This document shows positions 25,807 through 55,084 of a DNA stretch of 64,000 bases, in pieces. Source of the DNA: a virus (taxonomy: Duplodnaviria; Caudoviricetes); the IMG/VR virus record IMGVR_UViG_3300031867_000003, positions 96,001 to 160,000 of that record. One strand, 5' to 3'. Position 1 is the first letter of the stretch; every line of letters starts with the position of its first letter. The notes beneath the pieces are model-generated. The model had not been told where the DNA came from. It did no database searches and saw only the letters and a list, made by a program, of their open reading frames with translations. Position numbers and translations under genes: made by a program.

Positions 25807-28800
25807 TCAGTGTCCGGCTTTTCTCATATCTTTAGCTATTTCTTTGGTAGTATAGTTATAAATGTTCTTTTTAAATGATGCATTGCTCATTAATCCCTTG
25901 GCAATTTCTTCTAACTGTGGCACTATGGACTGATCCGCGTTGCCGTCAATTCGAATAAGATTGTCATAGTGGATGGTGATGTTCTGATTTGTGCTATGAT
26001 TAATATTATATTCCGGTGTCTGGAAGTTAGGTGTCTAGACAGGCACCATTCCAGATTTAGCCATAGCCATAAGGTTCTCCGTAAGGTCTGCCGGGATAAC
26101 TCCGTCTCCGGCTTTTAACGGCATTAACATTACACCACGACGGGTGATAATAGCTTCCGGACCCTTTTCGTTGATTTGATAAAGCCCCGGCTTCGCGGAT
26201 TTCGTTCCTTTCGCAAGACCGCCACTAAGATATTCTTCTCCTAGTTTACCGCCACTGAAATCACCGTTTATGAGTAATTGTCTAAACATGTCATTAAGAT
26301 CGCCGACCTGCTCGCTGATTTTTGTCGCCTCGGATTTCATAGCTTGCCAATAGTCGTATTCTTTTTGAGAAAGATTATCTTTATAAATGTCTAATTTCTT
26401 GCGTATATTACTGCTACTAAGATTAACTCCTTCAACATATTTATACTATACATCGAGATCTTCTCCGACCATCTATGGAACACCCATATTTTGTTCGCCC
26501 TAGAAGGCATCGGGGTGGAACGACTTAAGATAAGCATTAAAAGAAGCATTTACGTTACCAAGTGAAGCTTTAAGGTTAGTGGCAGAATCAACTACAAGTT
26601 GTGCCGCATGGTCAATATTTATAGATAAGTCTTTTACAAACTTCTCATAATTTTCTTGAAGTTTTGCTGAAAGATCGGTTAATCCGTCAATACGGAGATT
26701 TACTATATGATCTTTGACAGTGTCATCAAGTTCTTCTTGCATTTCCGCACGTTGTGCTTCAAGGCGAGCCTTTTGAGCACGGCTCTCGGCATCAGTTCAT
26801 TTATATTCACATGGTTCGCTACACCATGCCGTGTGAGATATAACCAATGGTATATCCACACTGCTCATGCTTTCACATGAGATTAGACTATATCATCTAT
26901 GGAAATTTTCCATAGTCTGTTGTTTCGAATTGCCAGCTTGCAATCCTACGTCCCTACACTCATCGGGACTAGTCGTTGAACGTTTCCTAGTATGTCTAGA
27001 ACTTCGCTGCTGATTGCCCAATATTTATCATTTTTAAACTATCGTAATTATTTATTATCACTGTAGTGATAAATCTCTAAGGGTTTCCCAGCAATTAAAC
27101 AGAATGCCCAATATAATTAGGCCATTTAGTGCGCGGATTTGCTGTTCGATAAGCTGCACATCTTTATTTTGCTTGCGTAGTTTCTTATCGTAATCGTACA
27201 TCTCTTTCTTTTTATTTATCTCATTTTTCCGGGCTTCAATAAGTTTGTTAATATAAGTAATTTCTGTTTGATACCTATCGGTTACATCCTTAATAATCAC
27301 CTGTCTCTGAGACGCGAGAGAAGTAATTACATCGCGAGATTGCGCTTCATATTCTTTCATTTTGGAGTTATATGTTTCTATATCAAGAGACGGATCTTCT
27401 CTTAACCGATTAGTAAGCACTTGTTGAGCTGTTCGAATTTTTGTAAACTAATCTTGTAGCATTTTATAGCTACGAACATCCATTGCGTATTTTGCAGTAC
27501 CAAGTTCAGTAAAGGTGCCGTCGGTCGTATACATCATTTCCGGAGAAATTGTTCCTTTGAGCTAATCTAAGGCTTTATGTACGGTGTCAATATTTTTAAT
27601 CATATCTTCCAAAGGTTTGAAATATACATCTTGCCTCATATCATCATATAAATTATTGATTTCTTCATCTAATTTATATACTTCTATATTAGCCTTTTGT
27701 ATATTTGCCATCATTGCTTTGTGCGCTTCGGAGTTCTCCAGAATTGTTCCGGCTTTAACATAGCTATCTAATAACTCCTGCTGGGCTTTCGCCTAATTTG
27801 CATATGCTTTTTGAGCGTCTTTTAATCGGTCGATTTGTCCTTCATAGTTGCTCTTCAAAAAGTCAATCGAAGAGTTCTTCTTGATAGTTGCTTTTCCGGA
27901 TTGATCATAAGAATAGCTAATTCCGTCAGTCAGTAATGTCGTGCGAGGTATATTGGTATTTCTGACGTATTCTCCGTCTTCATTCTTAGTAGCAATATAA
28001 TATCCTTTATCTACCGAATAAACAACTCTTGATTCACCGACTTTTTTTCCATTGGTCTTGAATGTCGGCTATGTGCTATTAAGTTGGTCGGGAGCAATAT
28101 AATATCCGCGTTCTTTCCATACTTTACGTATTTCTTCGCGGCGATCCGCCCAGGTTTTGGATAAATTAACGGCCGCTTGATACCAAGACTCGATATTATC
28201 CATCTTTTCCTATGCGATCTTTTGCTCGCGCTCTGCAACTTCAACCGCAGACTAAATGAGTTCTTCCCTCATTTTTTGCTCTTGTTCTCTGGCTTGACCG
28301 AGAGCGCCGGTAACATTTTCCAATGATGCCGTAGCATTATTCCATAACGCAACCGCCTCCCCAAGTTCGTTAGACACTCTTGTCGGATCTATTTTCCAAC
28401 CGTTATTTAAAGCTTTATTAATAAAATCTTTTTCTGATTTGGAAGCCTTTTTATACGCGTCATTGCTCAATATAGATTTCTTTGCTTTGTCGGATTCTTT
28501 TTTTAGCGAAGCCTATTGAGATGCAAACTGGGTTGTTATTTCCTATTGTTCCTCTATAGCGATCCGGCGCTTTTTCAATTCCTCTTTCAGCTAACGCATT
28601 TCCTTATCAATGTTTTCATTTTGCGCTATATAACTCGGCTTATTAAGAGAGCTTTCCATAAGTACATTAGCCTATCCATAAGAAGTGTCTTGTAAATTTT
28701 TCAATTCGTTTTTGTCGGCTCGGTTCTATTTTCTAGCGGCCTAATACGCTTTATCCGCACTATTCTTGGCGGTTTTGGCAGCTGCTTCTTTTTTGATTTT

Positions 28801-31800
28801 ATTATTGTAATCATCGACAAGCTTTTTGAAATAAGGCCCCCTATTTTTATTATATGGAATAAGTTCACCTTTTTTCATTGCGTTTAGTATTGAATTTTTA
28901 TCATTCTTCGAAACTTTTTTATTTGCTTTAAGATAATTTTCTAATTCAGTTTTGGATTTCTATGTTAAATCTTTGCGGCTTTCATATTTACTTTTGGCGT
29001 CATTATAATTCTATAACTTAGTGGCTCTGTCAGCTGTAGACTTAGCTACCACATCTTTCTATGCTTTTACCCCCGTGGCAAATTCTATCCAGCGCTGCGC
29101 AGACGCAATGCCGGATTTTCCGCCGGAAATTGCACTTGTTATTCCGGAAATAGTATTGATTCGGTTCTCAATTTTATCAAGCGCCTTCTCTAGCTTTTCG
29201 GTCGGTAGCTAGATAATCTGGCTCTGAAGATCTCTCATTGTATTCGCAAGTTCTTGTATCGCATTATTTGCGTCGCGAGATTTATTAATATAATCGAGAT
29301 ATGCGCGAGCGCCTTCAACAAAAGCGGCCTAATTAGGATTGGTCGTCTCTATTTGTTCAAGATTATATTTGCCTTCAAGTAAATCTTTTTGATTAAATTT
29401 GCTCCAGATATTTACTGTCTGTTTGTTTCCGTCTTTGTCCGTATAAACATAGGCTTTTGCTAATTCTTCGGCGAAATTTTTGTATGTCGTCGCGGCGCGA
29501 GAGTTGGCTTTAATTTCATTCTGGAGTGCGGTAACTTCGCTGCGAAGAAGTTTCCCCTTAGTTGCGTTGGTCACATAATCGGTAATCTTGTCGGCAATTT
29601 TCTTCGTTGCGTCAGCAAAATACTGAAGACGAAGTTCAACGTAATCGAATATTTCTTGGGAGAATTGAGGTTTATCGGCATTGTCATTGTTATTATTTCC
29701 GGCATTGTTGTTACCGCCACCACCGGTACTTGCTTGCTAATTGCCACTACCGACATTTACGTTGTTATTATTGCCGGTAACAGTTACTCCGGATTGCCCA
29801 CCACCGCCACCGGTCCATGTAAATGTTCCGCCGCCATTACCGGCATGAGCATTCATTCCATTAACTGTCCCTTTCGCAAATGCGGATGAGCCGCCAATTA
29901 TACGTGCGTGGCTAGATGTACGACCTTGTTTAAGAAGATCTTCCGTTTGTTTGTGATTAAATCATATATGTTTTTCTCAGTTCGCTACGCTGAGAAGGAA
30001 TTATTATAATTCCCTCATAGTTTCCTATGAGATCAGACTATATCATCTACTCAAATAGAAGAGTAGTTTACCGTTTCAAGGGTCAATAGCTTACCCCCTA
30101 CATGATAGTCGTTGAACCTTATTCTATTCGAATCTTGGCTGCTGATTACCAAATAATAATATTTTAAAAACTTTCACGATTATCTATATTTCATAATTTC
30201 GTTGTAGTTATTATTCTCTAATGGTTTTCCAGCAATTAGATAAATTTTTCAATGTATGTTGCCATACAAAGTCGCATAATTAATACGACGTCGCCCCTCT
30301 TAAGGTTTTCTATATGTGGTCCACCAGGAACGAGGAACCATTTGCCGTTTCTTATGATTGATTCCGTTCCCAATTCATTAATCAAGCTTTCTTGGTCTTT
30401 GTCTATTGCGATGTCACCTTTTGCATATCCACTCATATCTTTGTAGTTAAGCATATTATATGCGCTACCGGATTTTGCTACCTTGCCTTCTTCGTCAAAC
30501 GTGCCTTTTGCATAACCTCGCCCTATTGATGAGAGAGTACCAGAATATGAAGCAGCATTTTCTGCTTTACCAGGTTTATTAACTTTGCCAGGTTTATGCG
30601 AAGCACTAGAACTTGCACTCTAACTTGGCTTCACAACAGTACCAGTAACAGTAGCACTAACATGGGCACTAATACTAATGTTGGCAATCATAGCACGAAT
30701 TCTACTTACTGCACTTTGCGCAGCGCTTATTGCCCTATCTGCATTACCGTCAATTGTGATTCTGGCGGTTCTTCCATTCGCAGACGCAACCGCTTGATTA
30801 ATCGCACTAATTGCGCCAGAATTATTGCCATTAATGGTAATTCTACCGGAACTTGAGTTAGCATGAGAAACCGCAGTAGCTATTGAACTCATTGCCTAAG
30901 AGTTGTCTCCACCAATTGTAATTTTGGGGTTTGCATCTTCAACAGTGGAGACCACTTCTTCCACAGAAGAAATAGCCTACTCATTATTAGCCTAAATATT
31001 TATAGGTTCAGAGGCAGATGATTTGATATTATCAACCGCAGTTTGGATTGCCTAAACCTGTGAAAGAGCGCCGGAAGTTGTTATGTTTAATGCTATATTC
31101 TGGGCAGCAGCTTTAACTCTGTTAATTAACCCAGATAATGCACTAATCTAACCGGCTGCCTAACTGGTATTTGCAGTAGTTGTAACTGTTTCTGTTTTTG
31201 TTTGCGTCTAATCTTTATTTCCGCCAAATAAACCCGAAATAGCATTTTTTGCTTTTTGAATTACTTCAACTATAGTAACTTTTTTTGTCGCTGGTTTTTC
31301 CGCCTATGCTTGAATTTCATCCTAGCCGGTAGCTTCAAGTTTAACTTCCTTTGTGTACTCCTCGCCATTAATCGCAGCACTAACAGCTTCATTAATCCCC
31401 TAGAGAGAACCCTCGTCTAATTTGACGGGCATAGATATTTCTTTTCCGTCAATAGAATTAATCATTGCTTCGGCGGTTTCCACATCAGATGTATCTATGT
31501 CCAAAGTGGCGGAAAGAGTTCCATCATTCATCGATTGCTATAATTCTTCTAATGAACCGCCATCTTCAAGATACTGTTCTATTGCAACTCGCACGTTATA
31601 CTCCTGTTGGGTCTTTGCTTCAAGCTATTCAAGCTATGCAAGTGCTTCTTGTCCGCCTTCTTCTTCGACATTGATTTGCGCTTTCATTTCGGATATTTCA
31701 GCTAATTTATTCTAAAGTTCATCAACACTCATCGAAGCGGCATCGAATTGAGTAGCCCCCTCGAATTGAGTACCTTTAAATAATGCTTCAACCTTGTCGG

Positions 31801-34800
31801 TAGCAACAGTAGTACTATCACTGAATTGATTCATACTATTGATAGGTCCAGCAAAATCAATTACTCCAAGCGCCGCAAGAATCGGTACTAGCTGTTCAGC
31901 TTGGGCAGAAGATAAGCCAGCTGCTTGTGCAATACCCTCAAGGGCATCCTCAGCAGCTTCGAGTCCCTTAACATTATAGTCTCCATCTCCCAACTTAATC
32001 TATTTGAGCTCATCATACGATATGCCTTTAAGGGCGTCAGCATATTCCATAACCGCATCTTTCGCGTTCTGAATTTTGGTCTTACCGGCTTCGAATGCCG
32101 AAAACTCGGCGGTATTACGATCTATTCCAAATGCTTCAGCACCAAGAGGAGATTCCCACGAACCGATTTTGCCCTCAAGGTCTTTCATAGCAGATTCATA
32201 AGATGCTTCATCAACCTCGAAGTCGGCATTTACTTTGATACCATAATCATCGGCTAAATCTTGTGCTTCACGGAGAAAACGATTTGCACTTGCTTCATCG
32301 CCTCGCTCCATTGCATCATCATAATATGATTTAAGGTCTGCAATACTACTCTTGAGATTCTTAAGGTTGCTTACGTATTCCTATGCCTGTCCTCGCTAGA
32401 AATTTTGAGTAGCTGTCTGTACGGCATTCAGCTATCCTTGATACTGATCAATGACATCCTACTGAATCGCCAAATCATCGGCGCTTGCGCCTTCACGCTT
32501 CATTTCGGCATATTTAAGCTATGCATTGGTAAGTTCATTAGTCCATTTCTACGTCTGAAGTTGAGCGTCTTCAATAGAACTGACGAACGCACCCATTCCA
32601 CCATATTCCTCAGCTTTGCCAAACATGTCACGGAACCATTCTTCTCCGGCTCCAAATTGATGGGCGGCTTTAGCTAAATCGGTAAAGTTCATCACCAATC
32701 CTTGTGTGCCGTCTTCATATGTTTCAAGTGTCGCCATACCGGCACTCTGCAAATCCATCATGAATTTATGTACGCCCTAGATATCATCGGTCATATATTT
32801 AGAGAATTTATCATAGTTCTGTTTGAATCGTGTCGGATCGGATAAACCCCATTCGTCAAAGTAAGCTGCGCGGGTCTTGTAGTCGTCGGTGCCAATCAGA
32901 CCTTTATCCCACATTTCTTTAGCTTCTTTGAGATAATTCATTGCCTTATCATAATTTGCTCCTTGATTTACAGTTTGATCCGCAAGTGCAATTTGACCAT
33001 GCTGTGAGAATTGTTCCATAAGTTGCTGATAAGCGGCAAATACTTGTGATTGCTGTTGCTATAAATCCGCAAGTTCTTGCTTTAATTTGCTAATACCCGC
33101 AGTATTTATATCACCGCTGGCATTCTCCATACGGTTAAGGGCTTCGGTAGTTTGATTGATTTTTGTTGTTAAATCATTGTTAGATAATTCATATTCTTGT
33201 TGCGCGAGACGCTGTAATTCGACAACGTTCGCTTTAACGCCGTCGGTTGTATTATAGAATACACCGGATAAATCGGCAGAAGAACCTAAGTCGCTAAATG
33301 CGGTGGATATTGCTTTGATTGTATCCGGAGTAATACCGGTAGGAGTGGTCATTTCCGAGAATGCGGACTAAATAGCAGAAGAGAGGTCTTGCGCTTGAGT
33401 AAGTAATAAATTACGAGCTTGATCATCATAGCCATAGGCGTCAGCAAGTGCTTGCGCCATGGATGATTCGTTTTGGCGGATTTGGTTAAGTGTATCTTGG
33501 TATTCTTGTTTGTTGTTTCTAAGTGCAGGAAGTTGATTCCTCAATGCCCTGTTTTGGTCTGATAAATTCTTTGCTTGCTGTCTGGATAAAGTCGCAAGAT
33601 TTTTGTATTCTTTTTCGTTAGCTTTGATACCTTTTGCCTAATTTACGGTAATTTCGTCATTAATAGCAGAAGCCTAGTCCTAGATATTTGTCATCTAATT
33701 TTGTAATACATTAAGATGAGATTCTGCTTCATTATACATTGGAGAAGTGTATTTCTGGAGACCGGATATAACTTCTTCAGCATCTAATGCTTCCTAATAC
33801 ATGCTTGCTGACTACTCAAGGTCATATATATCTGATTTTGGATTCCCATATCTTTGAGCAAGATCAAGGGCCTCAGACATAATAGATTCCTAAATTCCAA
33901 TCTGTTCTTTTGCATTATTCGCCTATAACTTTGCAAGATTATGAGAAATATATTCTCCTCTGTTTTCAATATCGGTGCGTTCTTTTTGTAACTAATCTCC
34001 GTTAGCTTTGGAAGTGGCATAATCCGTTTTTAGATTATTTAAATCTGTTTGCGCATTTTCTTTTCTGGTTTCTATCATTTCTGTTTCCGTGCTTGAAATA
34101 TTTGCTATAGCCTCTCTATAATCAGCTAATGCTTTATCATATGCTACCTAATCACGTCTATCAGCCGCTTCATTCATCCTTCCAAGTGCGGTATTGGCCT
34201 TATCGTGATATGCCTAAATATCTGATTCATATAATGGCATGACACTATTATTAAGTTCTTCCTCAGTTAAACGTTCGCCTTTTGCTTGACGGTTCTCATT
34301 TCTTGCATTTATTAAGTTTCGCTTTTGTTCATTTTTCTCTAAAACAGCTTCAGCCTCACGATCTTTAATAATCAAATCCCATTCAATCTTTTTATGATTA
34401 TACTCAGCTAAAATTTGCTATAATGTTGATTCTGCCGTAATCGTACCATCAAGCGTCAGTTCCCAAAGAACATTATAATCAAGTTCTTCGCCATTCTATG
34501 AGAGAGCAGTTAATACATCATTATATTTCTATTCGTTAAGATGAGAACCTGTCTAATCTGTATATGAAAACGTTTCTTTTAAACTGTTTTTTGCTGTTTC
34601 GGCAGAAACAGTAAGGTTATCATAAGATTCAATTAAATTATCAATATACGCCTGTGATGCCCTTGTGGCTTCCGGTGTGAGTGGACCTTTGTCTGCCTAT
34701 ACTTTTTTAAACTCTTTGATATATTCAGACAACTATTTAACCGCAGCGTTATTAATGCCTTCAAATGAAAAATCGTCCATACTTGGCATAGCATCTTGCA

Positions 34801-37800
34801 AATTTTTCATTTCTTCTGCTGTAAGTTTACCGTTTTCACGGTAAGACTCTAGTGCATTATTCAGTGATGATAAATTAGATTCATACTGTGATGCACTTTT
34901 GGAAAAATCTTCGTCATTGAGAATATCCGCAAGAGTACCGGTTCCGGCTTCTTCTTTAATCTAGGATAACTGGTTCAAATATTCTCTGAGGGATTCAATT
35001 GTATTGCCAACAAAATTAAAGTTTTGATTGTTCATCGCTGTCTGGGCAATTCTTTGTTCTTTTTGCGTTAAACTCTGTATGTCATCCCAAGATATCTTGC
35101 TTTTGCCTTGTTTATAGACATTTTTACCATTAGCATCTTGAGTTACCTCGCCTCCAAGTCTTTTGAATATGGCAGCTCGAGTGTCAGTAGCGTTCCAGTG
35201 GTAATCACCATTTTCATCCTCATATTTGTATTCAAGACCAACAAGAATTGTTTGCTTTATTTTATAATTTTCAGTTCCTTCGCCACCTGGGAAAATCGTA
35301 TTTAACACACCATTAATCTGATCTCTCATTTCTTTATTGGTGGCGTCATCAAATTCAAAATTAAAAATTTTAGATAAAGCTTCTTTTGATACGTCTCCGT
35401 TGCTAACAGCTTGTTCTATCGGCGCAAGTATTCTATTTTTAATATCATCATCAAAACTTTCGCTATTAGAACCTAACTGTTCATATAATGTATCATAATC
35501 GATATTATATAACTAAGATAAAATACTATCCGTTAAATCTTCGCCGAGATGTAAAAAGTTAGGATCTGTCTTTAAAGTCGAAATTAAATTAGGAACAAAT
35601 CCAGTCGCCCAATTTGCCGACTTCTAAACATTGGCAGACTTTATAGTATCTTGTGCTCTTTCTATATAACCATTAAGAATGTTCTGGTACCCGTCCATAG
35701 AACTAGATAACTAGTTTAAATCGTCCTATGTTAACTTAAATGTTATTTTTTCACCCTAATCTCCGTGGCTATAATAACCATAATCTACCCCAAGACTGCT
35801 CAGTACATTTTCTAGCGCGGATCTGGCCCCGGAACTTGTAGGAGCATCCCACACTTTTGACCCAGTAGAATTTATCTCTGCAATCTTATTCTGTATTTCT
35901 TGTACCTATGATATCTGTTTTTCCGCACCGGCAATTTCGTCGTCATAGTTTTTGTTTCCTTCAACGATTCCTTTAACTATACCAGGCATTTGTTTTTCAA
36001 TTTCATTTGCTTTTATTTTATTCTGTGCTTCAATTAATTCATTTAATTTATCTGTTGCCTATTGAGCATTTTCCCCTAAGTCAACCAAAGACTATCCGCT
36101 ATCTGTTACTCCTGTTTTTAAGGATGGAAATGTATCCGCGAGCTATTGATTGATTGCCAAAAACTCCTCATAATCTTCTGTTGAGAGTGAGAGATTTTTA
36201 ATTTGATTTCCTCTCATATAAACACCGGAACGAAGTTCATTATAACGTTTTCTAGCGTTTTCGCCAACTTCATTAACAGCGGTCATTTCTTCTCTTGCTT
36301 TTCTAGCTTCTCCCTATGCCGCTAATCCTTTATTTATTTTGTTTTCTCTATAATGTGCTAGATAATTAATCCCTTCGATCCCTTTACCAATCGCAGCCGT
36401 AATAGCCATAGAAATTGCACCTGTTGCAAGACCGGAGATAGCAGTTAAACCAACGTCTTTAATGAATGAGGTAGCTATACCCTTAAATGTTGCTTTCTCA
36501 TTAAGTGCCTTTTTAAAATCATCAACAAGCATACCTTTGCCGCCACGTTCTGCAATGCCGGCGATTATGTCTTGCGCTTCATCCTTAGCATTTGATAAAC
36601 CGGTCTGCCTAACATCTCTTACTCCATCCCAGCCAAAAAGCTATCCGACGGTAGTAGCATTTCTATTTCCAGCTATTCTTTTATTAAGCCATTCAATTGC
36701 ATCTTCCTTTGGTTGCGTGTTAAATAATGCGTTCTTAAGACTTTTAAAAAATCCCCCATTAGTAGAATCAAATCTAGTTTTCATATCCTTAAAGATATGT
36801 CCAAATTCCCAATCCCCCATACCGTTTTTACGGAATAATCCGTTTCCGGTAAACTGAAGAAATCCGCCGATTCCGGCTCCAAGAATTCCACTAAGGCCGC
36901 CGAATGCGTCTACTAACTACGTAACTACTTCAACGGCAGAAGTGCCGAGTTCAATGATATCTTTAAGCCATTCACTGTCAATTGTTACTGTTGCCAGTTG
37001 TTGTAAACTATTTTGAAGCTGTGCCATTTTTCCTTCTACAGAATCAAGATATGTGTTAAGCTCGTTTTGTGCCGATCCTTGTGAGTTCATTAAAGAGTCT
37101 TGATAGACATCTTTTAATAGCTGTGGATTTGATAATAGGCTACTTGCTGCTGCTGCACGCGTTTTTCCTCAATTATGTTAAACATGGTTCACAACACCAT
37201 GTGATTCGTAATAAACGAATCTCTTACACTTTCATGCAAGTTCTGACCATTTCTTCACCCTCAGCATCATCTGTTAGGGGCATACCTTTTCGGCGTACCA
37301 TAAGTTTGTACCCTACGATTATTCATAATCTGGTCGATGAACGTTCGCCAATATATATATCCAAAATATACATACAGGCGCTTCGATGCAAGAACAGCCA
37401 ATCTTTATGTTATAAAACCATCATAATATATTTTCATTATTATTGTGGTATAAAGCTCTAAGGCATTACCTGCAATTAGATATGTTCTTTATATATATTT
37501 CTATATATTGTGGCAAGCCGTTTGCCACCGTTTCAAGTAATAGCGACTATCTATTAGTGCCCAGTTTCTTATCTTCCTCACCAATTTCCTTAAATACCTC
37601 AGCGATACCGAGCATACGTTCGTATGTTGTTTTGTAAGTACCGTCGTCATTCAGTATATCAAAACCTTTATATCCGTTTGATTGCACCTTTGTTGCGTCA
37701 AGAATCGTTTGTCGCAGTTTCGATTGTGTAGTAATTAAACCATCGATTTCTTCGCCGGCTTCTTGCATGTCTTCTACGGAAGTGCCGCTCAATCTCAGTG

Positions 37801-40800
37801 AGATTGTCTTAAGGGATTGGCCAACCGTGAGAGGATCTTGAAGGACGGCATTTGCAGCAGTAGTAAGAGCCACAGCTTCGTCAAATGAATCCGATCATGT
37901 TAAAGATAGTTCGCAACGCTATCTTAATTTATTGATAAACAATTATCAATCTTTATCTATCAATAAATTCTTTACCTTTCGGCAAAGTCCCGACTATTTC
38001 TTCACCCTCACCATTACGTGGAGGGGCATACCTTTTCCAATTCCATTTGCGATTGAATTGTACAATTAGTCTGTGAACGTTTATCTTCAATTAAAAAGAT
38101 ACTTCGCTGCGCGATCTACCAATTCTTATTTTTTAAGACTATCATAAACAATTGCTTGCTTATTGTAGTAATAAGACTCTAAGGTTTTACCCGCAATTAG
38201 ATATGTTCTTATAATATATTTCTATATTATCGGGCAATTGTTTTTACCCGTTACTTGTAATGTACCAGCAGATTTCTGAAGTGACTCAGCTAACTCTGAC
38301 GTACTGATTGCGTAGTTATTGCCTACGTAGTTTAACTTATCGATGATTTCCGATTTATCAAGATCTTTATACGCTTGGCTCATTGCAGTTAATGATTCAG
38401 TTGCAGCATTAATGTCTTGGAATTCCGACACATTAAGAAGTACAGTTGACAATTCCGCACTTTTTTGTGCCTACTCAAACGACTCGCCCAGTCTTAACCA
38501 ATCCGCAGTACTTTCTTGAATTTGTTTAGACGTTGTCCCGACGCGATCGGCAGCCTCAAAGCTTCCGTGTTGTGCAAAATCTTTAAGAACACTAAGTGGC
38601 TCGTCAGACACTTTTCGCATTTCCGTGAGGGCAGTGTCAAGTTCTCTGACGATATTTACTCCTTGCTTGGCAATATTGATTACTTCATACAAATCCGCGT
38701 ATGTAAGTAAATATCTCGCCATTCCCTTGAACGAACCTTTAAGAGTCTCACCAAATGATTTGCCGACATCTCCGGCTTCCGTAGCCTAGGTTTTTATCCG
38801 CTCAAATGCTGCGGCGATTTCATCAAGATTACCGGCGGACGCACCATTTATTGCGTCTTGAAGGTTTTGAATTTGTGGGAAGTATTCAGTGGCAGCGGAA
38901 TTTTTATACATCCACTCTGACATACGGCGATTGAGAGTAGCAGCATCTTTTTCGTCGGCGGGAGAGTAATACCCTCCACTAGATCGTTGAACTACGTCAT
39001 TCAATCTGCCTCTAAAAGATAATACCTAAGCCTAAATCTAGTCACGTCTATCGGGGGTGGCTTTTTCATATTCCCCAGATATTTTAACCAAATTTTCAAA
39101 CTCTTCGTTTAAATCATGCAGAACGTTTACTCCATCTTCATTCCAGTTTCCATTGCCTAATTTTTGAAGAACTTCACCCATTTCCTCAAGGCTGTCGGTA
39201 AATGCAGACGTCTGCGCCTCATTCATAGTGTCATCAAATTGTTGTCTTAATTGTTTTAACGCATCCGATGCCTCACCTTGTGCGGTGACGAAAAGTCCAG
39301 TTTTATTTATCGCATTTTCATAAAAAGTTCCATATCTGTTTAAAAACGCCTATTCAGAATAATCCAACATCTATCCGTTTCTCTGCTTTTCATTAATTTG
39401 CGCATAACGCTCTGCATACTTAATAAGTGTTTGATATCCACGCTCAACATTTTCAAATTCATAATTCTCATTATCATTAAATGCGGACATCCCTGATTTT
39501 AAAACGTCCACATCTGCCATTTTTTGTCTATAAGTATCAAGAGCCGCATTAGGAACAGTCCCATCGTTTCTCTAATTCAATTTGTCAAGCGATTCATATG
39601 CTTTTTCTGCTTCCTCGCGATACTTTTCCATTGTTTTTATCGCCTGTTGTAGCTAATTGGCGCTTATCTCTCCAAGATTAAACATATCCTATGCATTAGA
39701 GGCTCGCTTTGCGGCATCATAGTATTGCTATATTTTACCGGCCTATTCACCGACATATTTAGATTCAGTAGCCTCCCATTCCTTTGCCAATCTGGCATCA
39801 TGTGAGGCAATAGCTCTATCTAAATCATCTCTGGATTTATAAGAACCATCTTTCGAAGTTACCCATTTGTCTAAAGCAGAGTCTGTCTATTCCTATGTAA
39901 TTTTCGATGCTTCCTTAAATTCATATATTTTTTCTATCGCTTCGTCCGCAGCTTCTGCTGTATCTTCCATCATTCTGACAATAGAACTTTTTACATTGTC
40001 CGGAATCACTTGCCCTTTTGCCTCATCTGTCAACATTTTATTATACGTATCTCTAGCTTCAATTGCCCTTTTTATTATATTAATTTGCTCTTCATATTCA
40101 TCCTTATTCTTTTTATTCACTGCAGCTGTTTTTTTATCCTAGGATTGTGCGGAGCCATTTTGAGCAGCTTCCCACGCTTTTATCCCTTCTTGATATTGCT
40201 CATCTGTAATATCATCTTTTATAGCCTCTAATTCACGCTTCGCGTCAGCAGCTTCTTGATATGCTTTTGTTAATCTAGAAACGGCCTCAGCCCATTCTTG
40301 TGTTTGTTTAATTTCAGGATTAGACTCGGCTTTTGCCTCTAGCTCATTCATTTTAGTTCTAGCGTTAAATAATTCTTTAAATTTATCAGTTTGTTCTTTA
40401 TAAAAATCACTAATCGTTTTATTTCGTTTTTTATTATCATCAGCTTGTGCCTTACCCTATGCCTCATAACGCTTACGCCCCATATTATATTCAGTGTTAC
40501 GCGCTTTTTGATATTGCTATTCTTCCATAGCGATTGCCATAGCATCTGATTTTTGACCTTCATATTCAGCATTTACATCCTTAAAACGTTGTTGAATAGA
40601 TCTTAATTTATTATTAAATTCCTCTAGGTCTTTGGATTTAAGATTGGAGCCGATATTTTTTTCAAGATCACTCAATTCTTTTTCTAAATCTGAGGTATCT
40701 ACATTAGACTTCTACATCTTACGCATGGTATTATGTATATCAGTAGTTAATTTATCTTTGGCAGCTGTTATGCTATATGGATTAAACTGAGTGTTTGCCT

Positions 40801-43800
40801 TTTGATTTTTTATAGCCTACTGCGCCGTTATTTTATATTCATTAATCGCAGCCCCTAGCTGTTCCTTTACTGTTTTCGGCATTTCTTGCCCAGCGTATTT
40901 ATCAAAGAAATCTTCGAATATTTTATTATACAAATTAGTAAGCTTTGTATCGTCCTCACTTGAAAAAGTTACTCCCGCATTATCTATATATTTCGCTTTT
41001 ATATTTTTAAGATTGCCCTTTTGCCTAGCAATAAGAGCATCGGTATTTTCAATGGATTTATTTCGCTTTTCGTTTTGTCTAAATTCTATTTCTTCATTTC
41101 TCTATTGTAACTTCGCCTAAACAATATCCGCAGACTCCTTTGCCCTTCTCTCGAAATCTTTTTTCTAATCTTGTCCAGGTTTATTATCAGCGCTATCGTA
41201 ATATCCATATAATTCATCGGTCATTCTCTGAAGCATATCATAGTATAATCCAAGTTCGTTTTGCATTGCGTCGGTGTTTTTACCTTGTTTTTCGGCATTT
41301 TTAATATTATTATCCAGCGTAAGCACTTTGTTTTGCATGCTTATTACTTGTTTTTCAAGGCTTTCATAAGTATTGTCTGTTTTAACCGATTCAAACTCAT
41401 TACCATCCTCATCGCGTATAATTCTAGTGGTTGCCTTTTCTCCATAGCCTAATCGCATAGTATAGGACGTTCTTTCGCCGTTTACTTTTGTTTCCCCAAT
41501 ATACGTACCTTTTCGATTATCAGAAGTATCACCTTGCTGAGTTACCTCAGATATAGCATCTGAATTTCTCTCAGCAGCTTTACCTTCATTATCAAGGCCT
41601 TTTGTCGCTTTCTTTGTGGCGTCAGCCGTCTTTTCACCAGATTCAGCAACTTTTCGGTTAGCCTCTTCAAATTTCTTCTTTTTTATCTCCGAAACCTCGG
41701 CAGCGTCACCCTCATTTTTTATTTCCTTAGTGGCGTCCCGAAGCGGTTTAGCTCCATCAGTTGTGTTTTTCGTAATTTTTACCGAAGACTCAGATAATAA
41801 TTCATTTAAATGTTGTTGATCATCAACTGATTTTTTAATATAACTTAGAAAATCATCTTTGCTAGATGGTGGATTAGATAAATATTCGTAAAGCTATGAC
41901 AATGCACCCTATGTATTAGTAGAAGTATCAAAGATGTGTCCAAAAGACTCATTTATCTCTTCCAAAAATGATATCGCATCTGAACCTTTTTTAGTTGATA
42001 AAGTACCAATACCAATAGTTCCAAGAATGTTGTTCCAGTCATCACCAAATTCTTCTCGGTCACTTTTAGAGATTCGTATTTTATTAGATGATACAAAACT
42101 TCTAATTTGTTTCCATAAATTCATATCGCCATATGATTCAATTACTCCGCTATCCCTAGAAAGAATATCAAACAGATTATCATAAGTTGGTGTTTCACCG
42201 TTTGCGGTTTCAACCAAAAGATTTCGAACTTCATTTTTTAATTGTCCAAATATTTTAGTGGACTTCACACCGAATTCATCACGAATGGCAGACGCTACCC
42301 TAGTTGTTTCTTTTTCTAAGTTTTGTTCATCAATTATAATATCGTCTATAGGCGACTCACTGGGTATACTTTTATCCCACATATTAGATATTTCATTAAA
42401 AGTATATCCAAGTTCTTTTGCTTTAGAATTAAATTGATCTATCGCGTCTGTAAACGGAAGATTTTTTTCTGTAACCTAAAATTCCAAGTCGTCTACTATA
42501 GACTACAAACTTTTTGGAGCCAACTTGGTCATATTTTCAAATTTCTAATGCGGCAAAATATCCTCGCCATTTTGTGAAATCTTCTTCCAGGATCCAGATA
42601 TTTCATCAAAAGCATATCCAACTGACTCGGCAAATTTTCTAACGGCCTCTTCACCTTTAATAGACTCCTTGGTTATTTGATCTAAGAAAGCACCATATCC
42701 GTCCGGAAGTTCATCCTCCGCCATTCCCATAGCATCTAAAATAGGCTATGTTCCCTCTGTGAATTTCAATATTTCACCATTTACACGACCATTTCTTTCA
42801 CGTTCGGCTACAAGTTCTTCCTATCTTTGAGCTATATGAGATTTAAACTCATCCATTGCCGCATCATATTCTTTTTGCCCAGTAGCAACGTCGGCTATTA
42901 GCTGATTTACAAAATCTTGATTTGCATCAGAATATCCCTCTATGGAGCGGATATCTTTTCCAAATGTTCGACGTCTGTCGTCTGGGACGGCAACTGGTGA
43001 AACTGGAGCCCCATCAGAATCTCCAGCTTTATGATTTTCATCATCTATAGCATCGGCTGCCTCTTCAATCTTTTCTGCCGTTTCTTTCCCAGATTCAGCA
43101 ACTTTTTCTTTATTTACTTTCGCGAATTCTTCTTTATATGGGATTGCCTCTTTGGCGGACTCGCCCTCGGTTTTTATTGCGTTTGCACCTTCGCGGAGAG
43201 AAGATAAGTCAATAGAAGATATGGTAGACTGAAATGTTGTGATAGATTTATTTAACTCATCAAAATTACCGGCAATGCTTTCCCAATTAATATTTGATAA
43301 TATAGAATCGTTACCACCTAAACTAAAAGCGTTCTATATAGCCTCTCCCATTTTTTCGGCGTTCTCAGCAACTTTCTGCATTGTTTCGTTAAGTTGCTCA
43401 AGAAATGATGGCGCTTTTGCGTCTTTCGGAAGAAGCCCCTTTGACATTACATTATGCAAATTGCCTATTGCATCTGTAAATAATTGGATTTGTTGTGTGT
43501 ATTCTTTTACGGAATCGGATTGCCCAATTTCATCATCAGCTTTTATTCTGGTCTAACTCAACGTTTCAAGTAACTGGTCTTTTAACTTCTGTTTATCTTC
43601 AGGAGACTTTGTAATTTCTGCCTTTTCACGAATTCTTTTACTTATATATTTGAAATCCGTTGCCGGAAAATTTGATTCCAACATTTGATCCCAAAATGAG
43701 TTTTCCCCTTTTCCGACACTTTCAGCGGTTCTCTATATAGAAGAGATGAATGCCATTATTTGTTTAATCTGGGTCTTTGAATCTGGTAATAGTTTAATTC

Positions 43801-45619
43801 TATCTGGATTAAACTATTCAACGAATTCCTAAACATTAGGGAACGCTTCCAAAAACCCGGAACTTCTTGGTGACTATGCCATAATATTTGCTAAAAGCTA
43901 TATATCACTAACATCTCCACCAAGCATACCTTCATCTTTTAATGATAATTTATATTTGTTTACGACGTCTAATATATTTTTATATGCTGCCTAATATCTT
44001 TCAGCCTAATTTAACCATTCTGTTTCTATATTTGCCTCAATTGCTGCGTCCGCTACATCGTCTTTAACATGCACATTAAACTATTGTTCTTTTCTTGATG
44101 TGGCTCTCGAAAAATCCCACATTTCTCTATTAAGTTGCAATAATGATTTCTGATTATTTCTAGCTTTTTGGTTAGTACCTTCTCCAAATCTACCTATAGC
44201 ATCAGATACCTAATTAACCACAGATAACAAAGACTAAAACTAACTAATTAACGGTTCTATTCCAGCGTCTGTATCTATTTGACCAAATGCAGAACTAATA
44301 TTTGTTATTTCCGTATTTAAATTTTCTAGTGTATTAATCAACTATTGAATATTTTCCGTATTCCAAGACGTAGAATCACCACTTGTAGCATGAATTTCTG
44401 AAGACATTTTTTCTTTTTTTTTATTAATATTTTCTATATGTTCCTCGGTATCATTTAAAGCCTATTCCGTTTCATCTATATTTGGCATTTTTATTTTTGA
44501 AAAATCAAAATCATTAATAGCCTATTTAATATCATTAAGTGCATTTTTAAGTTCATTTAATGCGTTTGTTGCGGAAGTTATTTGTCCCTCATCAATTTTA
44601 AATGTTAGTCCATTACCATCTTCTCCGAGAGCATCTAGGGACTACGAGACTTTATCTATAATATTTTGAAATTTCTAAAACGTTCCGTCATCTTGAAATG
44701 CTTTCTTAATTTTGCCAATAGAATCGGCTACGCCGGATTCGGTCTCATCTTCAACTCTATCAGCCATCTGTTTGGATGCCTCTAACTCCCTCTCAAGTTC
44801 TGCTCGCTGCTATTTTAATGACTTAACCTAGGACTTATTTATTTCATCTGGATTTCTTCCAAGATTCTATAAATTTTTATTTCTAACATCAACCAGTCTA
44901 GCCTATATGTCTTTATAGTTTTCAAACACGCCGGAATCTTTAATTATTCTGTTATCGGGGTTTAGAGCAGTTCTTAATTTTTTAGTAATATCAAATATTA
45001 TTTGAGAAAAATCTTTATCGTCAAACCCTATTAACTAACTCAAGTCTCCGCCTTGACCCAAATATTTAAATAAATTATCAATATAACCACGCAAATCACT
45101 TGCATTTTCCTTAGAAAATAGCCCGTCCAATTGAACATTTGATGTAGCAAGCTATTGTATCTTTCTATATCCTTGACTATTAGAATCAAGTAAATCTCTT
45201 TGTATTTTCCTAAAATTATTTTTTGCCTAGTTAGCATTTTTAATTTGTTGATTTATGTTATCAATATCAAAACCGATTACTTCCTCTGGTCTAACAGTTG
45301 TTTTTCCGGCTATCTGATTAACGGTTCTTCCAACATTTTCTAAATTGCTCTATACTTCTCGAAGAGAATTGCTAAGTTCGTCCATCCCTGCAACATTTAA
45401 ACCAAATAAATCTTCGCCGTTCTATCCTTTATACATCTTTGTTACATTTTTAATCGCGGATTCAATGTCCTTAATTGAGTCTAATATTTTTGATGTATCT
45501 ATATCTGCATTAAATTTAATTGGTTTTTTAGCTCTTCTTTCCAATTCGTCTATTTTTTTAGTGCCACTATCATCAACTTCAACTTTCAACGGCACAATCA
45601 CGGTTTCAGTTTCTTTCAT
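25807..45619 (-). CDS. Giant tape measure protein, about 6153 aa after splicing. Exons 45619-38246, 37891-37524, 37169-30285, 29962-27119, 26797-25807
   Basis: The tape-measure fragments of the ORF track fall in frames consistent with this exon structure; TMP core motifs (ELDTALTEMRKV, IIDKLNYVGNNYAIST, GQSLKTISLRL); dense in-frame TAG; exon sum 18462 nt is divisible by 3. Confidence 0.85.
26798..27118 (-). ncRNA. Group I intron D in the tape measure gene (321 nt, ORF-less)
   Basis: P1 GCCU/AA..UUGGGC with U.G pair; core AAUUGCUGGGAAA, AAUCAGCAGC, GUUCAACGACUA, GAUAUAGUCU; terminal G; splicing restores ALNGL-TDAESRAQKARLE. Confidence 0.88.
29963..30284 (-). ncRNA. Group I intron C in the tape measure gene (322 nt, ORF-less)
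   Basis: P1 GUCGU/AU..AUGCGAC; full core motifs; terminal G; splicing restores LKRGDVV-FNHKQTEDLL and explains the frame change. Confidence 0.9.
37170..37523 (-). ncRNA. Group I intron B in the tape measure gene (354 nt, ORF-less, C-G at the 5' splice site)
   Basis: P1 GUGGC/AA..UUGCCAC; core AAUUGCAGGUAA, GUUCAUCGACCA, AAAUGGUCAG; splicing restores LLETVA-GKTRAAAASSLL. Confidence 0.82.
37892..38245 (-). ncRNA. Group I intron A in the tape measure gene (354 nt, ORF-less)
   Basis: P1 CGGGU/AA..UUGCCCG; core AAUUGCGGGUAA, GUUCACAGACUA, AAAUAGUCGG; splicing restores LQVTG-DSFDEAVALTTAAN. Confidence 0.88.
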
Positions 45620-45633
45620 TATTACTCACCCCC

Positions 45634-46071
45634 TTATAAAATTCCATTTATATATTCAACAATTAAATCACTAATAGGCGTAGATGTTGGTACATTTGCA
45701 AATGACCATCCACCAGCACCATTGGGTCTCGGTCCACCATGAACACCATAATTAACGGCTTTATCAAACGCATGTCCAGAATCACCTGGGTAAGTTGTAC
45801 CCCATGGCGCCTCCCAAGAATTTACTCCCACCGTCCCAGAAGTAAAAGTATATACCAAATCACATCCTTCTATCCCGTGCCATCTTTCTTCCGGCTCTAC
45901 TTCTGCAAAACTATCAAAACCAAAAACACGATCATAACTACCTGGACCACCAGAACCGTACCATTCTGCCACGGCACCGCCAATAGCAGCAGGGATTTCT
46001 TCTTTTATTTTGTTTACCTATTCTTCGAGCGCAAGTTTTATTATCTAATCCGGTATAATATTTTTATTCAT
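45634..46071 (-). CDS. Hypothetical virion protein (145 aa, TAG=Gln)
   Basis: AGGTAGG RBS; ATG 46071; two TAGs upstream of ORF 45634..45972. Confidence 0.7.
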
Positions 46072-46121: not shown

Positions 46122-46637
46122 TCAATTAAACGTGTTATCTAATATTGCATTCAATTTATCTAAATCTATTTTTTCAAAAATAGGATATAGTGTAGCTCCG
46201 ATTAATTCCCCAAATCTTTCAACTTGTTTATTTATATAACTATGCGGCTCATATTCATTTGTTATCATGTCATTACACTTCATATTAAGAATAATTTTGA
46301 ACTCATTTAAATCTTTTTCATCAATCATAGACACAATATCATCAAGTGCCATAGATGCATCTAATTTATTATATTCATTAAGCCCATCCTTAAAATTTAT
46401 ATCAATATCCGTATACATATCTACAATACTTAAAAATGTAAACATATGTTTTGCAGTAGAATTAACTTTAAAATTCCTATTCTCATCATAATAAGAATTA
46501 TTAATAATTATCTGAGATCGAACATCTTTTTCCTCAAGAGGGATATAAGATTTTACAATATGCTCTTTAACAAATACAATGCGCTTATCCGTTTCTTTAC
46601 AATTATCATATAATTCCATAAATTCATCAAATTTCAT
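46122..46637 (-). CDS. Hypothetical protein, possible tail assembly chaperone
   Basis: AAGGAG RBS before MKFDEF; acidic protein located upstream of the tape measure gene. Confidence 0.55.
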   Translation of the reverse strand: MKFDEFMELYDNCKETDKRIVFVKEHIVKSYIPLEEKDVRSQIIINNSYYDENRNFKVNSTAKHMFTFLSIVDMYTDIDINFKDGLNEYNKLDASMALDDIVSMIDEKDLNEFKIILNMKCNDMITNEYEPHSYINKQVERFGELIGATLYPIFEKIDLDKLNAILDNTFN

Positions 46638-47751
46638 AATATTTCTCCTTACAATCATCTACAGTAGTTACCGTAATTTCTGTGTGCGGATTTTCTTTGT
46701 CATAGCCGATTATTTGAAAAAAAGAATTAAGATTTAAGCAGTTGGATTTATCTTCGACAATATTATTATTCTTATGTTTTTTACTAAATTCCCAGTTGTC
46801 TATCCAACCGTAAATATCCTAAATGGAGTAATACAATTTTTCATCTATAATAATTAGTTTAGAATTTTCAACTGGATATTGTTTTGAAAACAATTCTAAT
46901 CTCAATTTAGATTTTTCATCCATCCATCCTTTAATTTCCAACCATAAATCATAATCGGGCAAATAAAAATCTGGCTAATAACTCGCAATACCTTTGATAT
47001 TTTCATTAAAGAAAAAACGCTTATATTCATACTTCCACTAAATATTTAAACAATTTAAAACTCTGGCAATATTAGCCTCCCAAGAACTTCTAAAATATTG
47101 ATTTAAGTCCTCACGTTTTCCACCTCTACATCTTGAATACGCATTTTCCGTTGTTCCATAACCTCTAGACTTTGCTCTTGTCTATACAGCCTTCATAGCT
47201 ATGTTATGTTTCTCTTCATACGACATATTCGCAAATAATTGCTAATGAGTTTCGGACATCTTCTTTTTTGTTTCTTTATTATGATGTTTTCCAAGCATAC
47301 CTCTAGAATGTCCGTTTTCTTTTTGATAATTCTAAGTAGCTAGTGACAATTTTTGTCTTACCTCATTTTGAAATCTCTCAGATTTGTGATATAAATCAAC
47401 ACCATTTTTCACTTTTTCAATAAACTCATCGGTTGCCTTTCTATTGCCATCTGTTAACCCAGCCTCTCTAGCAACACGTTGTATAGATATAATTGGTCTA
47501 TTTATTTTTCTTGATAGAGTCTCAAGATTTAAATATTCGCCAGTATGGTCATTATAATAATCAATTATAATCTGTTTCTCGTTTTCCGTTATTGGTTTGG
47601 GAGCAAGCCAGTTTAATCCTAGTTTGGTTTTCATCCCTCTAATACTACCAGATGACCTATTTAAAACTTCACTAATCTCCTAAACAGTTTTCCCCTAACT
47701 ATATAATTTTACTAGTTTATCCTTTTCCTCATCTGTCCACTTTTTATCCAT
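46627..47751 (-). CDS. Free-standing homing-type endonuclease: HTH + NUMOD3-like + PD-(D/E)XK nuclease (374 aa, TAG=Gln)
   Basis: KWTDEEKDKL; GMLGKHHNKETKKKMSETH; YFRSSWEANIAR; Y*PDFYLPDYDLWLEIKGW; open only if TAG is a sense codon. Confidence 0.8.
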
Positions 47752-47770
47752 AAAAAACTCCTCTTAAAAA

Positions 47771-48208
47771 TTATATTTCTTTAATATAAAATTCGGTTCT
47801 TGGATTATCTTTGTCATATCCACCAGTTATTGTAAGTTTTGTAAGATTAAGATAATTATCATCAATAATCATTTTGGATTCAGTAAACGCATCCATAAGC
47901 AGTTTAACCCCTCCAACGCAATTGTCTAAATCAAATCTTCTTCTCGTTGGCATATAAACTTTTACCTCAAGCTCGAACATATCTAAGCATAAATTTTCAT
48001 ATTCATAACGGTTTACTAACCACATTCCAAATTCTTTATATTTAGCTTTTAACGCGGCAATTTGAACCCTTTGTAAAATCAAAATCTGATTAAGAGTTGG
48101 CATTATAGGTCTATCAATAGGATTTTTTTTCGCCCTAGGATGGCATTTGAAATAATACTTGTTATATTCGTCAACCAACTATTGGTCTATTATTATTTTG
48201 TATTCCAT
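47771..48208 (-). CDS. rusA: RusA-like Holliday junction resolvase (145 aa)
   Basis: RRRFDLDN...LMDAFTESKMIIDDN...DKDNPRTEF motifs; true ATG at 48208, one TAG upstream of the listed ORF. Confidence 0.75.
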
Positions 48209-48222
48209 TCAGTTTTCTCCTA

Positions 48223-48438
48223 TCAAACGGTCATAGAAAGCATTATATTGGCAATATCTCGCACACAATCTTTGCGACCAATATCTTTAACTATAGCTAT
48301 GGCTAAATATGTTTCCCAATAATCAACAAAATGTTCGTCATCTTCAGTAACATCATCGCATCCCCAACGTCGCACTACTTCATTAAACTTTTCACAAAAT
48401 TCCAATATATTTTTACATTCTTCCATAAACCGCCTCAT
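48223..48438 (-). CDS. Hypothetical protein
   Basis: ORF overlapping the recombinase stop (ATGA). Confidence 0.5.
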   Translation of the reverse strand: MRRFMEECKNILEFCEKFNEVVRRWGCDDVTEDDEHFVDYWETYLAIAIVKDIGRKDCVRDIANIMLSMTV

Positions 48439-49439
48439 TGTATTCCAAACATCTCATTTATTTTATCTTCGGTTTCATCCTTAAAATAGCCGGAAGTGGT
48501 AGTCAAATCAGAATGATGAGCAAATGCCTGGATTTGATCTAACTCAAATACCTTATTATTGCCATTTTCATCTTTAAGCCGGTCATCCCAACCTTTTTTC
48601 AACGCTTGGAGTCGGGAATGGCGACAACTATGAGGAAAAATATTTACTTCCTCTCCGCGAACTTCAGATAATATTTTACTAATACTAACAATCCTGTCAT
48701 AAAGAGCTCCACAGTCAACTTCAGAAGCCGTTTCCCCATGTCCCTTAATCCACAAGGAATCTATTCCGTCATCTCCGCGCCATTCCAAATATTGCCTAAT
48801 TAATTCCCTGGTGTCATTTAAATAAATAAGAGGAAACTGCTTTCCTCGCTTTCCTCTGACTATATTGGTTTTATTGCCTTCAAGAAGACCGTCTTTTTTA
48901 ACTTGATAAACCTCATTGCGTCTCGCTCCAGAATCATACATCAATGACCACAACACAGCATCTTGCAGTCTACCACGTTCAAGAAGAATATCTCGTGTTT
49001 TTACAAACTCTTCATATGTAAAGAAGAAATCATCATCATTGGTTTTGACCTTTTCATTCGGAACTCCGCGAACCTTTTTACTATAATTGATTTCATAATC
49101 ATAATCGTCATCTTCTTCGCAAAAAGTCAACATTGAGTTAATAGAAGAGTGGAGACGATTGCATCTTGCCGGCGACATTCCGGAATCGTCAAACCATATA
49201 TTTAAACGTCTAAAATCTTTCTTTGTCATCTCAAGCACTGATTTATTATCAAAGTCCTCTAATATTTTAATAAATATTAATTTCAAATCATATCTGTAAG
49301 CATTAATGGTGTTAGGACTTTTTTTCTGCTGGCGAAGTTCCGTAAGGAAGTCTTCCATAATGGCTTTATTTTCTGGATTAACCTTGGCCCATTTTTCATC
49401 GGTATATATTCTATTATAAACTCCTCGGCTTCTAGCCAT
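48435..49439 (-). CDS. Tyrosine recombinase (phage integrase family) within the tail module
   Basis: DSGARRNE, GKRGK, FPHSCRHSR and AHHSDLTTTSGY motifs; no TAG. Confidence 0.9.
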   Translation of the reverse strand: MARSRGVYNRIYTDEKWAKVNPENKAIMEDFLTELRQQKKSPNTINAYRYDLKLIFIKILEDFDNKSVLEMTKKDFRRLNIWFDDSGMSPARCNRLHSSINSMLTFCEEDDDYDYEINYSKKVRGVPNEKVKTNDDDFFFTYEEFVKTRDILLERGRLQDAVLWSLMYDSGARRNEVYQVKKDGLLEGNKTNIVRGKRGKQFPLIYLNDTRELIRQYLEWRGDDGIDSLWIKGHGETASEVDCGALYDRIVSISKILSEVRGEEVNIFPHSCRHSRLQALKKGWDDRLKDENGNNKVFELDQIQAFAHHSDLTTTSGYFKDETEDKINEMFGIQ

Positions 49440-50621: not shown

Positions 50622-50649
50622 ATTTATCATTCCTTTCAACAATGATTAT

Positions 50650-54837: not shown

Positions 54838-54847
54838 AGTATTCTCC

Positions 54848-55084
54848 TTACGTAAGTTCATGCTTACACCATAAATCAAAATATTTCTTGCTCTGCTCCC
54901 GATTAAAAATAAAACATAATATCGGGTCTCCTGTGTTAAAATCCACGCTTATATACAAATCAAGAAGTTCACATCCATGTTTTAAATATAAAGTGGCTTG
55001 TCTTACATTAACTATGCGGACGCCGTCCTATGGATAATAATCTTTTCCCGTTATATCTGAATGAATATCATTAATGTCTCTCAT
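54848..55084 (-). CDS. Hypothetical protein (78 aa, one TAG)
   Basis: AAAGG RBS; MRDINDIHSDITGKDYYP*DGVRIVN...FDLWCKHELT; missed by the ORF track. Confidence 0.7.

Follow-up and report, generated by a model that had tools for sequence, protein, structure and literature searches.

What is encoded in the 19.8 kb between positions 45619 and 25807 on the minus strand of a 64,000-nt stretch of viral DNA (bases 96001-160000 of the 202,175-bp IMG/VR record IMGVR_UViG_3300031867_000003, rated 100% complete by CheckV; hereafter the window), where the standard code (translation table 11) yields no open reading frame (ORF) longer than 229 aa in the stretch 24-47 kb? An earlier note had proposed a hidden tape measure protein (TMP) of about 6150 aa in five exons. 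This proposal is borne out by the reading frame, the splice sites, matches to TMP families, synteny and collinear uninterrupted homologues. The locus is best read as the sole gene for a tail tape measure in a 202-kb phage that decodes TAG as glutamine, interrupted by four self-splicing introns and encoding a 6,153-residue helical product for a long, probably non-contractile tail, a reading to which we give a probability of about 0.85.

A recoded gene in five exons

The minus strand carries all genes of the region. When TAG is read as Gln on this strand, frames of 2497, 135, 2284, 932 and 311 aa appear in succession from 45619 to 25807, and open frames of ~2,300-2,500 codons cannot arise by chance at 38% G+C. 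Joined as five exons separated by four introns, they give a coding sequence of 18,462 nt, i.e. 6,153 aa plus a TGA stop, the same figure as that given previously. Translation of the spliced sequence with table 15, one of the checks proposed in the earlier note, meets no internal TAA or TGA and 134 in-frame TAG codons, and the frames of the ORF fragments, said then to agree, fit in phase exactly at all four junctions. The predicted product has a mass of 684.5 kDa, is acidic (isoelectric point 4.9) and contains 1.5% proline; self-BLAST at E 1e-3 detects no internal repeats, so that recent tandem duplication does not explain its length.

The meaning of TAG was assessed by comparison with a sister phage (IMGVR_UViG_3300021387_001709, 189,811 bp; G001, loci L009-L011), the one close relative in IMG/VR. 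Among the 12 commonest aligned codons listed, 68 in-frame TAG codons face TAG in the sister and 32 face CAA or CAG, the next commonest partners occurring 4 times each; in other words, where the sister codon is not TAG it is CAA/CAG in 32 of at least 55 cases. That CAA/CAG is the main partner other than TAG supports the assignment of TAG to Gln. TAG recoding of late genes is already established in gut and rumen phages (Borges et al., bioRxiv 10.1101/2021.08.26.457843), whose code-15 phages have, like this one, late structural genes full of in-frame TAG; a term search of the same text returned no description of giant or intron-split TMPs.

The ATG at 45619 is preceded, at a distance of 7 nt, by the Shine-Dalgarno sequence AAGGGGGTG (45627..45635, minus strand, by direct reading), a strong ribosome-binding site that overlaps the TAA of an upstream 148-aa ORF. 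No start context accompanies any of exons 2-5. Exon 1 (38246..45619, on the minus strand like all features of the gene described below; 7,374 nt) encodes residues 1-2458 and closes in phase 0 (GGT|), precisely where its Pfam and PHROG matches stop, at residue 2458. Exon 2 (37524..37891, 368 nt) belongs to the TMP core, covers positions 748-828 of PHROG 4211 and encodes a protein segment 100% identical in the sister; given its length of 368 nt, exon skipping would break the frame. Exon 3 (30285..37169, 6,885 nt) is collinear with, and 33-37% identical to, four uninterrupted PF10145 proteins of 4,251-4,887 aa found in a protein database search that covered proteins up to 5,000 aa. Exon 4 (27119..29962) has 2,844 nt, and exon 5 (25807..26797, 991 nt including the TGA stop) matches PHROG 8892, a TMP family.

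The domain search, also suggested in the earlier note, thus returned PF10145, PHROG 4211 and PHROG 8892, all pointing to a TMP. PF10145 (PhageMin_Tail) is matched by residues 2356-2458 with 34.3 bits on exon 1 alone (cut-off 33.2), and intron 1 cuts this domain at profile position 111/201. PHROG 4211 (TMP) is matched by exons 1, 2 and 3 with E values of 2.6e-28, 1.2e-4 and 1.9e-16, respectively, collinearly over profile positions 554-1807. Together these matches place the core at residues ~2265-2700, its first part (38246..38827, residues 2265-2458; PF10145 and PHROG 4211 positions 554-746) lying at the end of exon 1 and the remainder in exons 2 and 3; the core begins at about position 554 of 2,625 in the profile of PHROG 4211, but at residue 2265 of 6,153 here. 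Just after the core comes a hydrophobic Gly-rich segment (36833..36958, residues 2652-2693), followed by a second hydrophobic segment (36368..36481, residues 2811-2848). Membrane-type hydrophobic segments are usual in TMPs. The TMP gene is the only PF10145 locus of the genome, and a genome search for the sheath family PF04984 found no member; the tail is probably non-contractile.

Four group I introns and their junctions

The four interruptions are small introns matching the group I model of Rfam (RF00028, gathering score 50 bits), each terminating in a G. Intron 1 (37892..38245, 354 nt) scores 70.1 bits (match 38255-37970), with a terminal G at 37892; intron 2 (37170..37523, 354 nt) scores 42.9 bits (E 4.5e-8, match 37533-37223), with a terminal G at 37170; intron 3 (29963..30284, 322 nt) scores 84.5 bits (match 30294-30014), with a terminal G at 29963; and intron 4 (26798..27118, 321 nt) scores 74.8 bits (match 27128-26864), with a terminal G at 26798. 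The gathering score is therefore reached by introns 1, 3 and 4, intron 2 remaining under it while being clearly a paralogue of intron 1. A conserved core is common to these four and to other introns of the window. Beyond P9, where the Rfam model ends, all four have two more hairpins, the last with a conserved GCGAAC-type loop, and then a short A-rich tail terminating in G, which places the true 3' splice sites 50-80 nt past the model end. None of the four contains an ORF, and a stop codon is met 16-39 codons into each, so that unspliced RNA would give truncated products.

A U.G pair almost always marks the 5' splice site of group I introns. It is present in intron 1 (T38246.G38235), intron 3 (T30285.G30274) and intron 4 (T27119.G27109), and is replaced in intron 2 by C37524-G37514, in the context GTG GC|intron|A GGA. 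This position, after C37524, is also the one given by covariance-model alignment. A 5' site after U37527 was considered and rejected: it would pair U-A, yield 6,152 aa and delete one conserved Ala, the product reading LLETV-GKTRAAAA where the intron-less P0001 and the L021 ORF read LLETIAGKTRAAAA, with one Ala more. The extra Ala in these homologues places the site after C37524, and hence a C-G pair there. Likewise discarded was a 3' site of intron 1 at G37896, suggested by analogy with the other introns, which breaks the frame; G37892 fits the continuous sequence of the sister.

Intron-less alleles provide an independent view of each junction. The sister TMP gene lacks introns at sites 1, 3 and 4: at junction 1 it reads ...LQVTGDSFDEAV... 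unbroken and identical to the spliced product, at junction 3 its continuous ORF aligns across without a gap, and at junction 4 it reads ...IRALNGLTDAESRAQ..., again unbroken and identical. Intron 2 is common to both phages (347/354 nt identical), and it is P0001 and L021, which are more distant homologues, that read across junction 2. Once spliced, the sister TMP is a stop-free protein of 6,443 aa, 77.5% identical to the 6,153-aa TMP. The sister has in addition an intron of its own ~24 codons upstream of the intron 1 site, where exon 1 of the present phage is continuous. When both genes are pooled, six distinct intron sites are found, three of them within ~150 codons of the core.

Some further features of these sites were observed. 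Around the intron 1 insertion (window 38246-38254) the exon ends in GTAACGGGT, with U at -1 for the U.G pair, and the intron-less allele of the sister reads GTTACAGGC; the changes are synonymous, as expected from co-conversion or from adaptation of P1. The sister carries two tandem group I introns at L009:12176-12993, separated by the 4-nt micro-exon AGGT (L009 12532-12535). Of these, the leading one corresponds to intron 2; the one after it forms a separate U.G P1 (AGGU/GCCU) and terminates in ...ATTCCG ahead of AAAACAAGG. The frame is kept only with both spliced.

Introns in TMP genes are not new. TMP-IVS1, TMP-IVS2 and TMP-IVS3a/b were described in 2008 as group I introns of Bacillus cereus-group prophage TMPs (Tourasse and Kolsto, PMC2504315); they occupy three sites, are paralogues retargeted through P1 and mostly lack an endonuclease gene, and the assignment of TMP-IVS1/2 to subgroup IA2 concerns the Bacillus cereus-group introns. 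The introns described here resemble them in being small, phage-type, in frame at conserved parts of the TMP, adapted in P1 among paralogues and variably present between related phages. Unlike these precedents, with three known sites of which a single prophage TMP (that of E33L) has at most two occupied, four introns interrupt a single gene here, six sites are found when the sister is included, one splice site has a C-G pair, and the host gene is recoded and five times longer. The TMP gene of Lactobacillus phage JCL1032 also has a group I intron. Another parallel comes from Staphylococcus phage Twort, whose tail tube gene orf142 is interrupted three times by group I introns (Landthaler and Shub 1999, as cited in PMC11878797); going by that citation, it too is a late structural gene of a Firmicutes phage with several self-splicing introns, differing by their number (three, not four) and by the gene concerned. 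Three introns per gene are also found in polymerase and terminase genes of Bastillevirinae (PMC11878797).

The N-terminal extension and tail length

In size the TMP ranks high, but not first, within a family of giant TMPs, whose IMG/VR members come from a profile scan returning 80 loci and whose genomes are of ~160-200 kb by CheckV estimate. The longest TMP-like ORF met is that of G002 (IMGVR_UViG_3300037400_002261; L091:11816-15301 plus L028:92-21535), a single TAG=Q ORF of 8,310 aa counted from the first Met, homologous to the present TMP from residue ~4157, where its core lies, onward. G003 (IMGVR_UViG_3300031867_000080; L012) has a first exon of 6,236 aa followed by more exons and introns, while L021 is a TAG=Q ORF of 5,777 aa and L087 encodes 5,668 aa in the standard code. 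In G003, a group I intron (joined-region 28371-30016) sits 8 nt upstream of the intron 3 position (after ...KRG, not ...KRGDV); a 430-aa ORF lies between the core of that intron and the next exon, and a second intron follows ~4 kb on. Phages in GenBank match the core only (residues ~2230-2460 and 2581-2660, 29-41% identity), among them SPbeta YomI and Thomasclavelia phages TR-TP1/TP2, and have no match to the first 2,100 residues. Two weak matches in metagenome bins of Clostridia (Eubacteriaceae, Acutalibacteraceae) hint at the host group; infection of a Clostridia bacterium from the gut or rumen is probable.

Ahead of the core lies an extension (38828..45619, residues 1-2264). Alignments with uninterrupted homologues from metagenomes (4,251-4,887, 5,668, 5,777 and 8,310 aa) run in the same order through the N-terminal, core and C-terminal parts, which makes the extension integral to the family, though fast-evolving. 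P0009, an ORF of 2,427 aa, is 26% identical to it over 480 aa; its PF10145 match begins at residue 2290 and is cut at profile position 126/201 by the end of the ORF, and to judge from its sequence it is probably another intron-split giant TMP with an intron in the same hot spot of the core. For residues 1-1200, only 9 proteins, mostly fragments, were found at E <= 1e-3 among 1.84 billion representatives. Codons 1-874 (window 42998-45619 versus L009:3062-5683) are 96.6% identical to the sister in protein and 95.2% in DNA, the rest of the gene being ~70% identical, and a 254-aa insertion follows in the sister directly after codon 874; the break looks like a recombination boundary or the edge of a module under stronger constraint.

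The earlier note had allowed that the roughly 2300 aa before the core might have another role. Their extent is confirmed, since 2,264 residues precede the core. An enzymatic role found no support in the searches: comparison of these residues with Pfam, PHROGs and PDB sequences gave no match, no credible PDB sequence match was found for exons 1, 3 and 4, and the motif DxDxD (D.D.D) does not occur in the 6,152-aa spliced version, which differs only by the missing Ala2581. The prediction is helical instead. Hydrophobic periodicity of 3.5-3.6 residues reaches z 6-9 against shuffles in five 300-residue windows starting at 1-1201 and also at 2101, and z 5.7 and 5.6 in those starting at 1801 and 2401, without any excess at the beta period in those extension windows by the same comparison; over the whole TMP, 14 of 20 such windows show helical periodicity with z 4-9. 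AlphaFold2 was run on the sister protein (locus L009), residues 1-1200 and 1201-2400, with alignments of 8 and 4 sequences. The two models have 75% and 78% helix, with helices of up to 101 residues, and 0 and 32 strand residues, the sole sheet being a four-strand meander; Foldseek against PDB found only generic helical proteins for both, with E above 0.03. On this evidence, the extension looks like a tape, not like a fused enzyme of the kind known from phage P23-45.

The latter comparison deserves attention. P23-45 gp96 has 5,002 aa, and its N-terminal ~1,100 residues are a virion RNA polymerase with a DFDGD motif (PMC10770324). In each phage a giant tape measure is encoded as a single polypeptide, in which a long stretch precedes the customary TMP parts and hydrophobic membrane-type segments are present. 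The present TMP is 23% longer, with no sequence similarity detected between the two, and its N-terminal part is devoid of DFDGD/DxDxD and predicted to be all-helical, not a two-barrel RNA polymerase; four introns interrupt its gene, in which TAG stands for Gln, and its host is probably of the gut/rumen Clostridia, not Thermus.

In the proposed working of the system, the 19.8-kb gene would be transcribed late as one RNA, from which the four small ORF-less ribozymes would excise themselves, and the ribosome would read the 134 TAG codons as glutamine. The resulting single polypeptide would comprise the 2,264-residue helical extension, the PF10145 core with its two hydrophobic segments and ~3,300 more helical residues; extended inside the growing tail tube, it would template tube polymerization and set its length. 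About 0.15 nm of tail corresponds to each TMP residue (the lambda gpH rule). At this rate the tail would measure ~0.92 micrometre if the whole chain measures, close to the value proposed earlier, and ~0.58 micrometre if the measuring part begins only with the core; for G002 the same rule would give 1.25 micrometre. No usable measurement was found in the literature on very long tails among rumen phages. We tentatively entertain, at somewhat under even odds, that the whole chain is the ruler in this phage and its relatives (5,668, 5,777, 6,153, 6,443 and 8,310 aa, and the 6,236-aa exon), whose tails would then be non-contractile, measure 0.85-1.25 micrometre and surpass that of P74-26, which holds the present record. 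This lineage of gut or rumen phages would have been overlooked since, under standard annotation, TAG recoding and introns break the gene into fragments.

Several points weigh against the interpretation as a single gene with a long measuring product. The extension is poorly conserved and varies in length among relatives from ~1,100 to 4,150 aa (~1,100 aa in P0003/P0004, ~2,260 here, ~3,550 in G003 and ~4,150 in G002), so a strict ruler role may not hold. Its AlphaFold2 models have low mean pLDDT (predicted local distance difference test) values, 44.6 and 61.8, are based on few sequences and concern the protein of the sister. Tail length is calculated here from a residue count, and the two ORFs upstream of the TMP gene (148 and 178 aa) have no chaperone or tail-tube annotation in Pfam or PHROGs. 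Finally, intron 2 is below the Rfam gathering score and has C-G in place of the near-universal U.G, and the splicing of the four introns is predicted from DNA.

The alternative that survives best, unlikely as we consider it, is that splicing occurs as set out above but the extension does not measure, being cleaved, folded back or ejected (e.g. as a conduit or anchor in a thick Gram-positive envelope), in which case the ~3,900 residues that begin with the core would set a tail length of ~0.55-0.6 micrometre. The differing lengths of the extension would be understandable in this case, as would its near-orphan status, with 9 matches among 1.84 billion representatives, and the behaviour of the first 874 aa as a separate module (96.6% versus ~70% identity, then a 254-aa indel); moreover, the first ~1,100 TMP residues of P23-45 are a virion RNA polymerase, not tape. 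Opposed to it are the failure of the searches to find a catalytic motif, domain or fold match and a prediction that is almost wholly helical, with very long, tape-like helices. Lambda-type assembly, too, puts the whole TMP within the tube.

Far less probable is that the N-terminal part is a divergent enzyme fused to the TMP, such as a virion RNA polymerase of the P23-45 gp96 type, that the searches missed. The one other TMP of similar size offers a precedent for such a fusion (PMC10770324), and model confidence is low for residues 1-1200; against this stand the absence of DxDxD (in the 6,152-aa version, without Ala2581), the absence of the two double-psi beta-barrels from the low-confidence models of sister residues 1-2400, with 0 and 32 strand residues in two 1,200-residue models, and the lack of any Pfam, PHROG or PDB match, to which is added the lack of any Pfam domain in the 4,150-aa N-terminal part of G002 and in the extension of L087. 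The weakest alternative takes the five frames for distinct genes, or for the remains of a decayed one, with intron-like RNAs that do not splice. It can appeal to the fact that splicing is predicted here from DNA and to the atypical intron 2 (42.9 bits, C-G pair), yet is scarcely credible given that frames and phases are exact at all four junctions, that intron-less alleles agree residue for residue, that intron 2 is 98% conserved in the sister, whose same essential gene needs splicing, that exons 2-5 lack starts of their own and that this is the sole TMP in a genome rated complete by CheckV.

Gene neighbourhood and significance

The surroundings of the gene are those of a tail module. Downstream on the same strand come a 283-aa ORF, a 1,211-aa minor tail protein (PHROG 6211) and an 831-aa tail protein (PHROG 3267), and upstream the two small ORFs occupy the usual position of the chaperones; no tail tube or chaperone gene can be named from Pfam or PHROGs. 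Just upstream of these two, the structural module is interrupted by genes of mobile-element type (window 46627-50645 and 53704-54948), comprising a resolvase/endonuclease-like protein (374 aa), a RusA-like protein (145 aa), a tyrosine recombinase (334 aa) and an HNH-repeat protein (401 aa), with a class-V aminotransferase (414 aa) beyond this block. At least nine RF00028 matches occur in the genome, and three more than those of the TMP gene lie on the minus strand of the window, at 56742-57093, 60204-60481 and 60513-60744 (61.2, 80.6 and 33 bits, respectively). The first sits between frames of 270 and 267 aa, the latter matching the virion structural protein family PHROG 2729, and on this arrangement a second structural gene is probably split by an intron there; the other two adjoin an ORF for a PHROG 4645 endonuclease (59203-60090).

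Compared with what has been published, the novelty of the locus lies in the 6,153-aa scale of its product, the four introns in one gene, the long helical extension, the C-G pair of intron 2 and the concealment of the gene by recoding. Also new is that an entire family of TMPs lies beyond the longest one published: this gene and its relatives surpass, by 13-66%, the 5,002 residues reached in the phage credited with the longest known tail. An essential gene of 19.8 kb can escape standard gene callers through recoding combined with introns. The cluster of introns at the TMP core, with three of six sites within ~150 codons and one C-G pair, is a good natural system for the study of P1 retargeting in group I introns. 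If the ruler rule holds, micrometre-long tails are predicted in phages of the anaerobic gut and rumen and, should this be true, how such tubes assemble, stay intact and pass DNA would become questions in their own right.

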